Shown one piece after another: positions 8,216-51,313 of a stretch of DNA of 56,341 nt. The position numbers were made by a program, and so were the translations under genes. This DNA is from Nanobdellota archaeon (GTDB lineage Archaea; Nanobdellota; Nanobdellia; Woesearchaeales; DATDXC01), in contig JBDRFR010000061.1 in NCBI GenBank assembly GCA_043818675.1, positions 1-56,341 on the forward strand, given 5' to 3'. Below the pieces are notes generated by a model. It saw nothing but the letters and a program-made list of their open reading frames with translations, made no database searches and was not told where the DNA came from. The first letter of the stretch is position 1. Each line of letters begins with the position of its first letter.

Positions 8216-8466
8216 AACATTATGCAATGTTTGTATACAATTTTTCAAGAAGATCACAGAAAGAGAAAGTGAAGTATATCAGAAAACTGTTAGGATATAA
8301 GAATATAAAATCGAAAACTTATATGCATAAAGGGTTAATAGACGAAACTAACGCGAAAAAAATTGCGCAGAATGTAATACTGGTGCCGTTTGAAAACTCG
8401 ATAGTGATCTCTAATTTTTTCAAGGATATAGATACTGAGGTTAAAGAAGTATGGCTAAAGGAATGA
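8200..8466 (+). CDS. Small conserved protein, tandem copy 2 (88 aa)
   Basis: Paralog of 7946..8215. It starts at the ATGGCTAAAGGA motif embedded in the 3' end of copy 1, and the same motif at 8451 starts the giant gene. Confidence 0.6.
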   Translation: MAKGLKHYAMFVYNFSRRSQKEKVKYIRKLLGYKNIKSKTYMHKGLIDETNAKKIAQNVILVPFENSIVISNFFKDIDTEVKEVWLKE

Positions 8467-11400
8467 AGCTTGCTGCAGTCGTGATGATGGCTTTGATAGT
8501 TACACTGCCATTTTATTCTGCTAATGCCATGGCAGCGCTTTATATTACAAAAGCCTACGGAGATTCCGGCAAAGAGAATTTTATAACAGAGGATGATAGC
8601 CTGACAATTGAGGTTATAGCGACAAAAGGAAACGTGCCGTTGGAAAATGATGATAGGGAACTTTTACGGTACAGTTCAGTGCCAGTGCCTGGCAATTACA
8701 ATTTCCAAAATACTTTGAAGTTTGACAGCTGCGCAAACGGCAATTGCCAGATCAAGTTTGATACGTATAATCCGTCAAAAAACCCGGCAACTGTGTTTGC
8801 ATACCTTTATGACTGCGTGGACTCAAGCAGCTGCGCATTAGTCTCATGGACGTCGCGGAATGTTGTAATAGACAACACGCCGCCTGTCACGTTAATCAGT
8901 ATTGAACAGATCAATACACAAAATGCAGCATTTACCAGTACAGCTAAAATTGGCTTAACATCGATAAGCATCAACTATAATGTTAAAGATTATGCATGCT
9001 CTAACTGCGGCACAAAATGTGTTGGGCTTAACAAAGTCCAGTTTTATGCGCAGAAAGCTAACCAGCCGGAAACCCTGTTAAGGACTATAGAAATCAACAG
9101 TGATACAGATGATTGCAGTAGAACCCAAACAGAAACTTTCAGCACATCACAGATATCAACCCAATCGGGCACAGTAGAGGTCTGGGCAGAATCAACTGAT
9201 AATTTTGGCAATACAGCGATAAGCAATATTCTGCCAATCATTGTAGACCTGGATGCGCCGGCTGTTGACCCGACTAAACTGGTTATTACTGATAGTCTTG
9301 GAGGCGACGGAACGTATGTGCCGCAAAACCCAAAAGACAAAGGGTTTGGGATTAATATCGCGCTTGAGATTGCCGATGCAGGCAAAGCAACATTAGACCT
9401 ATCGGCGCTTAACCCTGAACTAACTGAGACAGAAGGTAATTGCGCTGGAAACGGCAATAGTTATACCTGTTTGTGGAACGATATTTTGCTGGATGTGCCT
9501 GCCACTTCAAGCTCTGTTTCATTATTGTTTAAAGCAGAAGATGATGTTGGCAATACGGCAACAGTTCCTTTAACTTATGCATACACAGTAGTCTCAACAG
9601 AACCGGCTGTGGTGGATATCATAAGTTCCCATAGAGGAGAAGATAATAAGGATTACGCAGGGTATAATGAGAAATTTATCCTGAAACTTAACCAAGGACA
9701 AGGACCTGGATTTTCAAAAAAGAACATCTTTATGGACTTCAGTGAATTGCGGCCCACACTTAATGATAAGCAGGCAGATGCGTGCACGCTTGACAGCGGG
9801 TTTTGGTATTGTGAATTTAATGATATCAATACACTGGATACAACCCAGGAGGGAACGCATTCCATAAGGGTCCTTGAGAACTCAATGGACGATCTTAATG
9901 ATAATCTGGACACAGTATCTTCTGTAATGCAGCAAGATGTTATCGTTGACAAGACAAAGCCCATAATAAAAAGTGTGAGCTATACGCCTGCAAACCCATC
10001 ATCTGCTGAACCGTTGATAATGACAATTAAAGTGCAAGAACGTAACGGCGTAAACGCGACAATCGATGCGTCATCAATAAGCACAGAAGGTACGTTTCCT
10101 AAAAAAGCTGCGTGTACGAGAGTAGATCCTGAGAATTTTGTATGCAGCGTTTCAGTAAATTCTATCATTTCCAGCTATAAAACTGATGCAGTCAAAGTAA
10201 TGGTAGAAGATTTCGCAGGCAATAAAGCAGCACCGCAGGATAAAACTGTTACAATATACTTGTCAGACACTGAACAAACACCTAACTGTTTTACTGTTTC
10301 GGAAAAAGAATCAATACCTTCACAGGTTGACAAGGCGGTCGCTTCAAGGGTGAGCATGAATTTGTTTGCGCATGCAAAACTATCCTCGCATTGCCAGGAT
10401 GTTGATATTATCAGCATGCAGGCTGACTGTACTGCAATGCAAAACCTGCTTGCTGACAAGCCTTATATCATGAACGAAGATTCGTCTGACCCGTATATCG
10501 CATTAAAAACACTAGGCACTGTCGGACTGTCGCCGGATGATACTGTGAAAATTGACTGTGAATTACAGCTGCTTGAGCGGGTAGGCAGTACTGTTTTTGC
10601 ACTGCCTGAAAAAGTGAATGTTGATATTGATGTTCCCATGTACGGCAATTCTCTTGGGGAACTTGATTCTAATATCCAACCTGAGATTACTGCAGTGCAG
10701 GATCAGATAAAAATTTTAACTGAGGATATTGCAGATGAGGAGGAATTACTTGAGATGTTTGGTATGTGGTGCCAGATAGCGCAAAGTATGGCGCAGATTA
10801 ATTCGCTTGCGCAAACACTGAAGTTTGTGCTGTGGGGAGTGTACCAGGTAATTGAAAAAACACCGGCTGCAATAATTGCAGTTTTATTATGGAAGATGAC
10901 ATGTAATATTTTAAGTATGACACACTGGATAACTGAGTTTATTTTCTGGCCGTCAGGAATTCCACCTATTTATCCGCCAAATCCAAGCATAATAGGCATC
11001 ATGTCAAAGTATGGCTGCATGATAAGGGTTAACTGCGCAATATGCGACTTTAGTACGTATATTAACCTTGCAGTGAATGTTGCTGCTGGATATATTGGGA
11101 GTAGCGGATCGGCTGAACCGAGCATTAATTTTGATACAGACTATGATCCCAGTGGACCGTCAACTACTGAAAAATATCTTGGCTGGACATCCTCAGATTT
11201 CCTTGGCAGTACAACAAACGCATGGCTGCGCGGCGGCATGAACACAGATGTACCTGGAGTTACAATCGGAGAGGCTGAAGATGAGGGAGGCAGCGCAAGG
11301 GATGAAGGCACATGGATATTTAATCCGTATAAAAGCAAGCACTATGCAGATGCATGCTTCTGCCTTCCAGCGCAAGTGTATAATCTTAAAAAAGAAAGGC

Positions 11401-11819
11401 AGATTAGGTGCATGCAACTAAACTGTATTCAAAACCAATTACTAGCAGGAATGTCAACAAACACATGTAATCAAGCGTATAATGAAAGGTATTGTCTATA
11501 CATAGAGAGTGCTCAGTACCTGGAACATGGATATTTTGATGATTTTTTTAGTAAACTGGGAGATGCTATCTGGAAAAATCTGCCGTATTTAGTGGCGTCA
11601 TTTGCGTGGATATCGATGTGCTACTATGAATCTTTAGTTACGATAGGAGAACCATGGTGTTCAATTGGACCAACAGGGGGAACGTATAATGTCTGGTGCG
11701 GACTCATCGGTGCGGTTGTTGCAGGACTTGAAATCAAAGGCATGCTTGATAGTGAGTTTAAAACCGGGTATGAGGAGATATTGGGTAAAGTTGATACACC
11801 TGATCATTGCGGAGGATAA
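8451..11819 (+). CDS. Giant secreted Cys-rich surface protein, paralog A (1122 aa)
   Basis: Sec-type signal peptide (MKLAAVVMMALIVTLPFYSANAMA). Repeated Ig-like boundary motifs (VVIDNTPPV, IIVDLDAPAV, VIVDKTKPII). The Cys-rich C-terminal domain (RQIRCMQLNCIQNQ...) is shared with the 29303 and 38952 proteins. Confidence 0.85.
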   Translation: MAKGMKLAAVVMMALIVTLPFYSANAMAALYITKAYGDSGKENFITEDDSLTIEVIATKGNVPLENDDRELLRYSSVPVPGNYNFQNTLKFDSCANGNCQIKFDTYNPSKNPATVFAYLYDCVDSSSCALVSWTSRNVVIDNTPPVTLISIEQINTQNAAFTSTAKIGLTSISINYNVKDYACSNCGTKCVGLNKVQFYAQKANQPETLLRTIEINSDTDDCSRTQTETFSTSQISTQSGTVEVWAESTDNFGNTAISNILPIIVDLDAPAVDPTKLVITDSLGGDGTYVPQNPKDKGFGINIALEIADAGKATLDLSALNPELTETEGNCAGNGNSYTCLWNDILLDVPATSSSVSLLFKAEDDVGNTATVPLTYAYTVVSTEPAVVDIISSHRGEDNKDYAGYNEKFILKLNQGQGPGFSKKNIFMDFSELRPTLNDKQADACTLDSGFWYCEFNDINTLDTTQEGTHSIRVLENSMDDLNDNLDTVSSVMQQDVIVDKTKPIIKSVSYTPANPSSAEPLIMTIKVQERNGVNATIDASSISTEGTFPKKAACTRVDPENFVCSVSVNSIISSYKTDAVKVMVEDFAGNKAAPQDKTVTIYLSDTEQTPNCFTVSEKESIPSQVDKAVASRVSMNLFAHAKLSSHCQDVDIISMQADCTAMQNLLADKPYIMNEDSSDPYIALKTLGTVGLSPDDTVKIDCELQLLERVGSTVFALPEKVNVDIDVPMYGNSLGELDSNIQPEITAVQDQIKILTEDIADEEELLEMFGMWCQIAQSMAQINSLAQTLKFVLWGVYQVIEKTPAAIIAVLLWKMTCNILSMTHWITEFIFWPSGIPPIYPPNPSIIGIMSKYGCMIRVNCAICDFSTYINLAVNVAAGYIGSSGSAEPSINFDTDYDPSGPSTTEKYLGWTSSDFLGSTTNAWLRGGMNTDVPGVTIGEAEDEGGSARDEGTWIFNPYKSKHYADACFCLPAQVYNLKKERQIRCMQLNCIQNQLLAGMSTNTCNQAYNERYCLYIESAQYLEHGYFDDFFSKLGDAIWKNLPYLVASFAWISMCYYESLVTIGEPWCSIGPTGGTYNVWCGLIGAVVAGLEIKGMLDSEFKTGYEEILGKVDTPDHCGG

Positions 11820-50409: not shown

Positions 50410-50497
50410 AAAAAATTGTATAGATACTTCCATATTTGGGAAGAATGTGCACCAAAAAAACTAAAATTTAAAAACTAAAAACTCTAATTGATAAAAA

Positions 50498-51313
50498 ATG
50501 GCAAATATTTTAATTAAATCATTCAATGACACAATAAACCTTATCATTAGATTCAAACATATAATCCTGATAATTTTTCTTATACAGATAATATTCCTGT
50601 TTTTAGTCGGCATCAATATAATTACGACAATGACACCTGCATTATCTGCAACTAAAGAGGTGCTTTTGTATGTCAACCAGCTGAGGCTTGATGATGCGGC
50701 TTTGGCAGAGAATATTTTAACAGGCAAGTCGGTGCTTGGGGATGACCCATTATTAGTGCAAAGAAATTATGAAGTTGTAATGAAGTTTATCAAACTATTT
50801 GTGAGCTTTAGCTTTATACTGTTTGTAATATTTGAAGGGTTTAACTGGGCGCTAACGCATCATATGATCAAAAAGAAAACATTTAAGCATTTTGTCAGCC
50901 ATATGATACATTTTTGCATAGTGTCAATTGTTTACTTTACTGCTATGGGACTTATACTTTACGGACAGTTGAACTCACTAGTAGATAACCCGCAGCTAGG
51001 CCCGAGGCTTGTCTTATCAATAACATTGGTAATGATATTATCATACTTTATGCTTGTATCGTATGGGTTATTGCATAATAAAAACCTGTTAATCATAATC
51101 AAAAAGACAGTAATAATCGGATTTTATAAAGCGTATATTTTGATACCAGTAGTAATTGCAAGCGTCATTTTGATTTTGCTGGTTTCATTATTGCTTTTTA
51201 AAACTGCAGAATCCTATCTGATCTTTACAATATTATCAATTATTCTTGTTACGTCCACGTTTATTTTTACAAGGCTGTATTTTGTTAAGCTAATTAACGA
51301 GATGGAGAATTAA
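50498..51313 (+). CDS. Polytopic membrane protein, module C (271 aa)
   Basis: Paralog of the 12294 and 36235 proteins (IKKTVIIGFYKAY, TRLYFVKL). Multiple TM helices. Confidence 0.75.
   Translation: MANILIKSFNDTINLIIRFKHIILIIFLIQIIFLFLVGINIITTMTPALSATKEVLLYVNQLRLDDAALAENILTGKSVLGDDPLLVQRNYEVVMKFIKLFVSFSFILFVIFEGFNWALTHHMIKKKTFKHFVSHMIHFCIVSIVYFTAMGLILYGQLNSLVDNPQLGPRLVLSITLVMILSYFMLVSYGLLHNKNLLIIIKKTVIIGFYKAYILIPVVIASVILILLVSLLLFKTAESYLIFTILSIILVTSTFIFTRLYFVKLINEMEN

Follow-up and report, generated by a model that had tools for sequence, protein, structure and literature searches.

Conserved gene locus for pilin-like, giant and membrane proteins in Woesearchaeota-type archaea, a candidate adhesive surface complex with split Hint domains

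In this work, we focused on a group of large surface-protein genes in a 56,341-nucleotide stretch of DNA from a Nanobdellota archaeon (assembly GCA_043818675.1, contig JBDRFR010000061.1, positions 1 to 56,341), the whole of which is hereafter called the window. These genes encode pilin-like proteins (PIL), giant secreted proteins of two families (GIA and GC), polytopic membrane proteins (MEM) and a protein of a further family (G2). A first-pass annotation of the same DNA had described a four-part set repeated in three equal paralogous modules, A, B and C. The repeated parts are real and the open reading frames (ORFs) were found where it had placed them, but the set of four does not occur three times. 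Judging from gene order in related genomes, the unit of conservation is an eight-gene locus composed of two different units, to which an optional third, paralogous unit may be added. We further unveiled halves of split, intein-like Hint domains on several exported proteins of the window. An attachment or contact structure is our best guess for what the locus builds.

Gene content and conserved order of the locus

The window was compared with 80 loci of other genomes, which were fetched with a profile of the pilin-like family and whose ORFs were classed by iterated profiles. Context look-ups were added, and three full-length relatives (L085, L086 and L087) were read. Homologues of the window proteins came from genomes labelled Woesearchaeota, Nanoarchaeota or Nanoarchaeia, which places the contig among the DPANN archaea.

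The locus lies at 26987-51313, and its genes are on the plus strand, as are all genes below unless stated otherwise. Its first unit is headed by a small DNA-binding protein of the ribbon-helix-helix (RHH) type (26987-27154), whose gene overlaps by ATGA that of pilin-like protein B (PIL1, 719 aa, 27151-29310). The following genes encode giant B of the GIA family (1073 aa, 29303-32524), two membrane-anchored proteins ending in a Hint N-half, i.e. h119 (32644-33003) and h313 (313 aa, 33000-33941), the G2 protein (765 aa, 33938-36235) and membrane protein B (MEM1, 226 aa, 36235-36915). The second unit comprises pilin-like protein C (PIL2, 639 aa, 37036-38955), giant C of the GC family (2288 aa, 38952-45818), two genes with AlbA_2, HATPase_c_4 and winged helix-turn-helix (wHTH) matches in Pfam (46012-48671), two exported proteins starting with a Hint C-half, i.e. 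h276 (48656-49486) and h308 (49483-50409), and membrane protein C (MEM2, 271 aa, 50498-51313).

Across the 80 Woesearchaeota/Nanoarchaeota loci, one order recurs: RHH (~55 aa), PIL1 (~710), GIA (~1040), G2 (580-1700), MEM1 (~250), PIL2 (~640), GC (~2000-2300) and MEM2 (~280). As this order spans both modules B and C, these are the two halves of one locus. Co-occurrence in related genomes had been set beforehand as a test, and it proved to be conserved: GIA comes directly after PIL in 74 of the 79 loci taken from other genomes, and among the 38 loci whose downstream sequence reached 9.5 kb or more, G2 was present in 36, MEM in 31, PIL2 in 27 and the start of GC in 19. In L085-L087, giant C homologues of 1979-2192 aa occupy the same position and are followed by a gene of 279-300 aa in the place of MEM2.

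Module A (8451-15900), by its gene content and order, is an extra and rearranged paralogous unit. It consists of giant A of the GIA family (1122 aa, 8451-11819), a small secreted protein restricted to A-type units (158 aa, signal peptide MKKYWIILVILCSTVQA, 11821-12297), membrane protein A of the MEM family (245 aa, 12294-13031, joined by an ATGA junction) and pilin-like protein A (958 aa from ATG, 13024-15900). The same succession, i.e. GIA, small secreted protein, MEM and a PIL of ~900 aa, is found directly upstream of the locus in the closest relatives, L005 and L006, where the pilin-like A orthologues measure 909 and 877 aa, respectively, and L005 has a homologue of the 158-aa protein at the same position. 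Together the three modules cover 31.8 kb, i.e. 56 % of the window, a little less than the 60 % first estimated. Their genes are packed in the operon-like manner already noticed, with six ATGA junctions and overlaps of 1-16 nt at most remaining ones.

A different regulator had been proposed for each module, and the RHH protein is the one that is retained as a conserved head-of-module DNA-binding protein. Its family is represented in 48 sources and, in the gene-order table, stands immediately ahead of the pilin-like gene; its RelB-like RHH match (E 4e-6) lies below the curated cut-off. The head of unit A is occupied by two tandem and near-identical small proteins (89 and 88 aa, 7946-8466), with 16-nt overlaps between the two and with giant A. 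They had relatives in only 4 other sources and no Pfam or PADLOC match, and their membership in the system is uncertain. L085-L087 have neither the AlbA_2/wHTH genes in the interval from giant C to the membrane gene nor the Hint-bearing genes. The AlbA_2/wHTH genes are not conserved parts of the locus, and PADLOC matched them to the Schlafen-type regions found in defence proteins. They have the look of defence-type insertions rather than of module regulators, and are probably outside the apparatus. In relatives, a 48-aa AbrB/SpoVT-like gene overlaps the start of PIL2 (L087:7841-7987, L088:9948-10091), and an unrelated 33-aa ORF stands in its place in the window (36916-37035).

The part list drawn up at first had missed the conserved fifth family G2, as well as a divergent neighbour of unit A (16008-17354, minus strand). 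The latter encodes a membrane-anchored protein of 448 aa with three Cys-rich repeats of the CGGPC type and a weak NPCBM_assoc match only. BLASTP against the fetched loci gave 47 matches to it, of 35-52 % identity (the 12 listed in full all on the minus strand), and its L005 match is located between unit A and the RHH gene. This conserved neighbour may be a further component of the system. Between it and the RHH gene, the window contains an insert of ~9.5 kb (~17400-26900) which is absent from L005. The insert encodes a Bro-N protein, a methyltransferase and a DUF6398/TPR protein that includes a phage-integrase SAM-like region; on the minus strand, it has an IS200-type Y1 transposase (24784-25167) and a 453-aa protein whose signal resembles the twin-arginine type (25381-26742).

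The G+C content ranges from 0.30 to 0.47 over the whole window, with values of 0.39-0.47 for most module genes (8000-16000 and 27000-46000) and 0.30-0.36 for the flanks and the inserted island; the window has no tRNA gene. A toxin-antitoxin-type pair, i.e. a wHTH-nucleotidyltransferase and a HEPN protein, lies shortly upstream of unit A (6467-7493). Two proteins of ~370-420 aa (2869-3984 and 51310-52575, minus strand) had no homologue among the fetched loci, the second one having a tail rich in Lys, Ala, Gly and Glu.

Protein families and their relationships

The three pilin-like proteins are homologous, as first proposed (BLASTP E values of 2e-44 for A-B, 9e-21 for A-C and 2e-21 for B-C). Their N-termini (MNKKGQVTVFIIIGLIIL in protein A, MKRGQITIFIIMG in PIL2) contain KGQVTVFIII, KAQVTIFIIL and RGQITIFIIM, and fit the archaeal class III signal pattern, i.e. 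[KR][GAS]Q and then a hydrophobic stretch. This pattern was found in 105 of 112 full-length members of the family, with a near-invariant Q at position +1. Protein B had 222 homologues, and all source names listed for them were Woesearchaeota, Nanoarchaeota or Nanoarchaeia. An AlphaFold2 (AF2) model of PIL1, built on a 71-sequence alignment, reached a pLDDT of 88 and predicts an N-terminal helix (2-38), a second helix (47-73), an alpha/beta domain (~45-430) and beta-sandwich domains (440-719). Foldseek searches of this model against PDB and BFVD gave matches of low coverage only (query-normalised TM-score, TMq, of 0.05-0.16) with transthyretin-like, CnaB, Ig/FN3-type, teneurin, SlaB and phage fibre or baseplate proteins. 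The matches of this predicted structure are most simply read as generic beta-sandwich similarity. The only pilins listed among them were Gram-positive isopeptide pilins, matched through their beta-sandwich domains.

Giants A and B are homologous as well (BLASTP E 3e-36 over ~800 aa), and the homology extends along their whole length, both being retrieved by each of three segment profiles (N-terminal, middle and C-terminal). They have a Sec-type signal peptide, immunoglobulin (Ig)-like repeats and a Cys-rich C-terminal domain, with 33 Cys in giant A. Among the 22 invariant columns of the GIA family, 14 are Cys, and its profile matched the Ig-like adhesin domains of streptococcal R28/IgI3 (E 3e-5). 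Giant C has a signal peptide, FN3/Big_13-type repeats, a conserved Cys-rich core in central position (~1150-1600) and then a variable tail. Its full-length comparison with the A/B family gave a high hhalign score (96.3 %, E 1.7e-9), but once dissected this score was traced to the signal peptide (E 5e-7) and the ends of Ig-like repeats (E 5e-5 and 6e-4). The A/B C-domain compared alone with giant C gave an E value of 0.03 and a probability below 2 %, unrelated control pairs giving 0.09-0.65. For this reason, a Cys-rich C-terminal domain common to all three giants, which the first-pass annotation had assumed, is unproven for giant C, and the profile comparisons indicate that GC is a family different from GIA, in an analogous position. 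The signal peptides of giants A, B and C are unusually alike (8451-8530, 29303-29380 and 38952-39025; hhalign E 5e-7 over 26 residues), and may reflect a common export or recognition step.

The kinship of the three membrane proteins, together with the motifs attributed to them, was recovered at the profile level. One iterated profile retrieved proteins A and B (E 1e-43 to 1e-56, with 1.7e-48 for A and 3e-56 for B) and protein C at 9e-07, and hhalign aligned the C-type with the A/B-type over 165 columns, including the K-x-T-x-x-G and R-x-Y motifs (96.6 %, E 6.8e-10). They share ~20 % identity, and ~6 transmembrane (TM) segments were predicted by hydropathy for protein A. An alignment of 42 members has no invariant column at all, so that MEM does not look like an enzyme. 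The family had no Pfam match.

The G2 proteins combine a variable N-terminal part with a conserved C-domain of ~350 aa, whose profile was found in 47 sources. The window G2 protein consists of a signal peptide, a Hint C-half, a linker, a contiguous PT-HINT copy (residues 186-308) and the G2 C-domain; it was matched by Pfam PT-HINT in two stretches (96.2 bits) and, above cut-off, by the TIGR01443 intein C-terminal region. An SLT lytic transglycosylase domain was detected in 4 of 40 G2 proteins. Enzymatic domains are also found in the GC family, the relative P0122 having a Trypsin_2 (trypsin-like peptidase) domain in its tail instead of the Hint N-half of giant C. The N-termini of G2 proteins are mixed, about one quarter resembling K-G-[LI]-V-S anchors and the rest resembling Sec signals, and the idea that G2 is consistently a third protein of the pilin-like kind was accordingly rejected. 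Extracellular proteins of large size with an SLT domain, restricted to Woese- and Pacearchaeota, were previously described, and their attachment to bacterial walls was proposed (Castelle et al. 2021, PMC8204110).

PIL, MEM, G2 and GIA gave no informative match in PDB sequence or profile searches except generic Ig-like domains. Against Pfam, NCBIfam and PHROGs, the core families had no match besides FN3/Big_13 in GC and the Ig-like adhesin domain in GIA, and no PADLOC match was obtained for PIL B and MEM B, the only core proteins scanned. By hhalign, PIL had no relation to GIA or GC, and the same applied to G2 and the 16008-17354 neighbour. In their density of N-glycosylation sequons, these proteins did not differ from cytoplasmic ones. 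The set as a whole had no database match, in agreement with the initial view that it is not a named system, and no description of this gene cluster was found in the searchable literature, whose coverage is incomplete.

Split Hint halves on exported proteins

The Hint halves of the window lie within 32644-36235 and 45579-50409. Three exported proteins, h119, h313 and giant C, have a Hint N-half as their exact C-terminus (C-F-L-P ... V-T-P-N/Y-H-x-V-Y-A-K, then stop). In h119, which has a hydrophobic segment at residues 19-37, Pfam Hint matched residues 45-118 with 32.3 bits; in h313, the half follows a 200-aa domain of unknown kind, the N-terminal part having no PDB sequence match; in giant C, it occupies residues 2211-2286. 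Three others, the G2 protein, h276 and h308, have the C-half directly after the signal peptide (W-E/N-W-V ... V-Y-D-L-E ... L-V-H-N-S). In h276, PT-HINT positions 73-136 were matched at residues 26-84, and the half is coupled to an Amidase_3 domain (N-acetylmuramoyl-L-alanine amidase, E 4.6e-40); in h308, it precedes a 225-aa payload of unknown function. PT-HINT was above the gathering threshold in three window proteins.

The break point is identical in all pairs and corresponds to a loop of the contiguous copy inside G2. All four copies have CFLP, with Cys1, and VTPNH/VTPYH, the T-x-x-H of block B, without variation, and the three split C-halves end in VLVHN-S or ALVHN-S, i.e. H-N and the +1 Ser are kept. 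The contiguous G2 copy ends in VHN-E, without a +1 nucleophile, and is therefore suited to cleavage, not to splicing. Joined in silico, the N-half of giant C and the C-half of h276 gave an unbroken alignment to the 138-aa bacterial intein-like domain 2lwy (E 2.4e-12), and the C-half of h308 alone aligned to positions 79-139 of mini-inteins (E 3.5e-4).

No Hint half was found in the 80 genome loci outside the window. A search of 1.84 billion representatives, which gave 4364 hits, retrieved further proteins made of a signal peptide and an N-terminal C-half, including the G2-family proteins P0148 and P0150 as well as P0151, in which the C-half is followed by SLT. On contig L088 (1115-5171), a 351-aa exported protein with a C-terminal N-half precedes a G2 gene starting with a C-half, with a nucleotidyltransferase/HEPN (MNT/HEPN) pair between them (2294-3228) and MEM, PIL2 and GC downstream. 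The split architecture was thus seen in at least two independent metagenome contigs (L088 and L091, L090 being also listed), and since it recurs in other proteins and contigs, the split halves of the window are not an assembly artefact. In four independent cases (the window, L088, L090 and L091), the C-half genes are directly preceded by genes of defence or toxin-antitoxin type: AlbA_2/wHTH genes in the window (46012-48671) and in L091 (2-208), the MNT/HEPN pair in L088, and in L090 (195-1669) an AbiEii gene with an unannotated gene upstream. The payload may travel as a cassette.

It is possible, though on balance we doubt it, that the secreted halves join covalently or dock payloads outside the cell, onto the giant surface protein or onto the small membrane anchors. 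Candidate payloads would be the peptidoglycan amidase, the 225-aa domain and the conserved G2 domain, which could be interchangeable. Both partners have export signals and any reaction would therefore be extracytoplasmic. If trans-splicing occurred, giant C up to ...TTTPA would be fused to SGKKVIVIDPGHGG of the amidase protein h276. Such joining would amount to a post-translational, mix-and-match arming of a DPANN contact apparatus and, if active, the exported intein-like halves would be a natural extracellular protein-ligation system, relevant to intein biology and protein engineering. No description of exported split Hint pairs was found in the searchable literature, incompletely covered as it is.

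Possible role of the locus and comparison with known systems

Woesearchaeota are among the most widespread uncultured archaea and are thought to live attached, and no attachment machinery is known for them. A locus of 25-30 kb whose order is kept across the lineage, and whose exported proteins have no database match, is a concrete candidate for such a machinery. With family relations, export signals, architecture and conserved order established as above, and with assembly, processing and target deduced from them, we consider it an evenly balanced proposition that the locus encodes a lineage-specific adhesive surface complex of Woesearchaeota-type DPANN archaea, in which PIL would anchor or present the giant, MEM would serve as platform and variable parts would carry enzymes. 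All the large proteins have export signals, of class III prepilin type in the pilin-like proteins and of Sec type in the giants. Each pilin-like protein would be processed by a prepilin peptidase encoded elsewhere; its hydrophobic N-terminal helix would then either form a membrane stalk or become part of a type IV pilus-like fibre, at its tip or its base, and the protein would hold its partner giant Ig-repeat protein at the surface, as bacterial minor pilins hold PilY1. The 6-TM MEM protein would be the membrane platform. G2 and the tail of giant C would act as variable effector carriers, showing bacterial-wall-cutting enzymes to a partner or prey cell: some G2 proteins would display SLT, one relative of giant C a trypsin-like protease, and in the window the enzyme would be Amidase_3. 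In the archaeon studied here, effector loading could take place after secretion, via the matching split Hint halves. The wall-cutting enzymes are relevant to the question of partners, which for some of these archaea could be bacteria and not other archaea.

Several observations weigh against such a complex. At 640-960 aa, the PIL proteins are far larger than known pilins, and no high-coverage match explaining the N-domain of PIL1 was listed when the whole model was searched with Foldseek against PDB and BFVD. No Pfam match to a pilus ATPase or to a PilC/FlaJ-type platform was obtained in the window or in the annotated flank genes, and no prepilin peptidase gene in the window or in the Pfam-annotated flank genes, whole genomes not being searched. 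A binding of the giant to the pilin-like protein is proposed only from the adjacency of their genes, and the AF2 model of the GIA C-domain (five sequences) gave no usable fold (pLDDT 39). Since only a minority of loci have enzymatic payloads, the display of effectors may be an addition and not the core function.

The same genes could form the cell envelope itself, i.e. a multi-component surface layer (S-layer) with PIL as SlaB-like stalks, the giants as a SlaA-like canopy and the paralogous pairs giving a composite lattice. A locus kept among ordinary housekeeping genes across the lineage would suit such a role, as would the pairing of a giant, beta-sandwich-rich secreted protein with a smaller anchored beta-sandwich protein, and Foldseek ranks SlaB (8qox_B) fourth for PIL1 (E 6.5e-5). 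The TMq to SlaB is just 0.12, however, and SlaB is anchored by a C-terminal helix, not by a prepilin-type N-terminus. Woesearchaeota metagenome-assembled genomes have separately annotated and highly expressed S-layer genes (PMC11606122), no S-layer Pfam match was obtained for these families, and enzyme-bearing variable parts and Hint domains are unusual in lattice proteins, all of which makes an S-layer rather unlikely. We consider unlikely a locus mainly devoted to contact-dependent antagonism or predation of the polymorphic-toxin type, in which the giants would deliver, the variable domains, C-terminal or linked to Hint, would serve as weapons and adhesion would be secondary. The PT-HINT matches above gathering threshold, the variable GC tail with Trypsin_2 in P0122, and the downstream cassettes joining a conserved Hint piece to differing payloads (Amidase_3 or the domain of h308, and SLT after the C-half in P0151) all speak for it. 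They are set against a conserved core (PIL, GIA, MEM and the G2 C-domain) which is not polymorphic, Hint domains that occur in none of the 80 genome loci outside the window, enzymatic payloads present in few members and consisting of wall hydrolases instead of the typical nucleases or deaminases, and no evident immunity-like gene.

Two further explanations deny the system or its residence. Gene order is strictly kept and overlaps are tight in dozens of genomes, at 30-50 % identity, which makes it very improbable that unrelated surface-protein genes merely lie side by side with generic Ig-like or hydrophobic similarity. This explanation would account for giant C resembling A and B in signal peptide and repeat ends only, and for the low identity of the membrane proteins (~20 %), but the homology within PIL and GIA (E below 1e-20) goes well beyond compositional similarity, and the hhalign control pairs remained at E 0.09-0.65. 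The G+C content of the modules (0.40-0.47 against 0.30-0.36 for the flanks) and the IS200 transposase, Bro-N and toxin-antitoxin pairs nearby would suit modules that are part of an integrated virus or of some other mobile element, and we regard this as extremely improbable: the core proteins have no PHROGs match, the locus is found lineage-wide beside housekeeping genes, and the mobile-type genes are located in the separate inserted island, absent in L005. The nearest predicted archaeal secretion system (Makarova et al. 2015), with arCOG01314/arCOG02884, a MoxR ATPase and vWA proteins, was rejected as a candidate because its components differ.

Type IV pilus tip complexes of bacteria consist of minor pilins and PilY1, and Myxococcus has several paralogous clusters of them. 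The locus resembles these complexes in that proteins with a prepilin-type N-terminus share an operon with a large Sec-secreted non-pilin adhesin, and in the presence of several paralogous sets in one genome. Unlike in tip complexes, each unit here has one pilin-like protein rather than four, of 640-960 aa, the 6-TM protein and G2 are without counterpart, no pilus machinery genes lie nearby, and no sequence or structural similarity was shown. With SlaA/SlaB of Sulfolobales, the locus has in common two adjacent genes, one for a giant, beta-sandwich-rich secreted protein and the other for a smaller membrane-anchored beta-sandwich protein. It differs by an anchor at the opposite end, a TMq of 0.12, no sequence relation, and additional conserved components as well as variable enzyme-bearing parts. 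The large secreted SLT proteins of fam00969, 'Module 98' (Castelle et al. 2021, PMC8204110), come from the same lineage and recall the SLT-bearing G2 proteins (4/40); that work describes protein families and not this cluster.

Polymorphic toxins with PT-HINT (PF07591) likewise have large secreted carriers, PT-HINT directly before a variable C-terminal enzymatic domain and downstream cassettes. In contrast to them, HINT is here split over two polypeptides, the C-half having its own signal peptide; the payloads hydrolyse peptidoglycan, no gene for immunity was seen, the organism is an archaeon and most orthologous loci are without HINT. Finally, naturally split inteins and 'fractured genes' (DnaE; Dassa et al. 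2009, PMC2677866) show the same arrangement of an N-half at the C-terminus of one ORF and a C-half at the N-terminus of another, with unrelated genes between the halves and with Cys1, T-x-x-H, H-N and the +1 Ser kept. The halves described here differ from these in that their intervening genes are of toxin-antitoxin or defence type instead of homing endonucleases, that three N-halves and three C-halves could combine, and that their hosts are surface proteins rather than replication enzymes.

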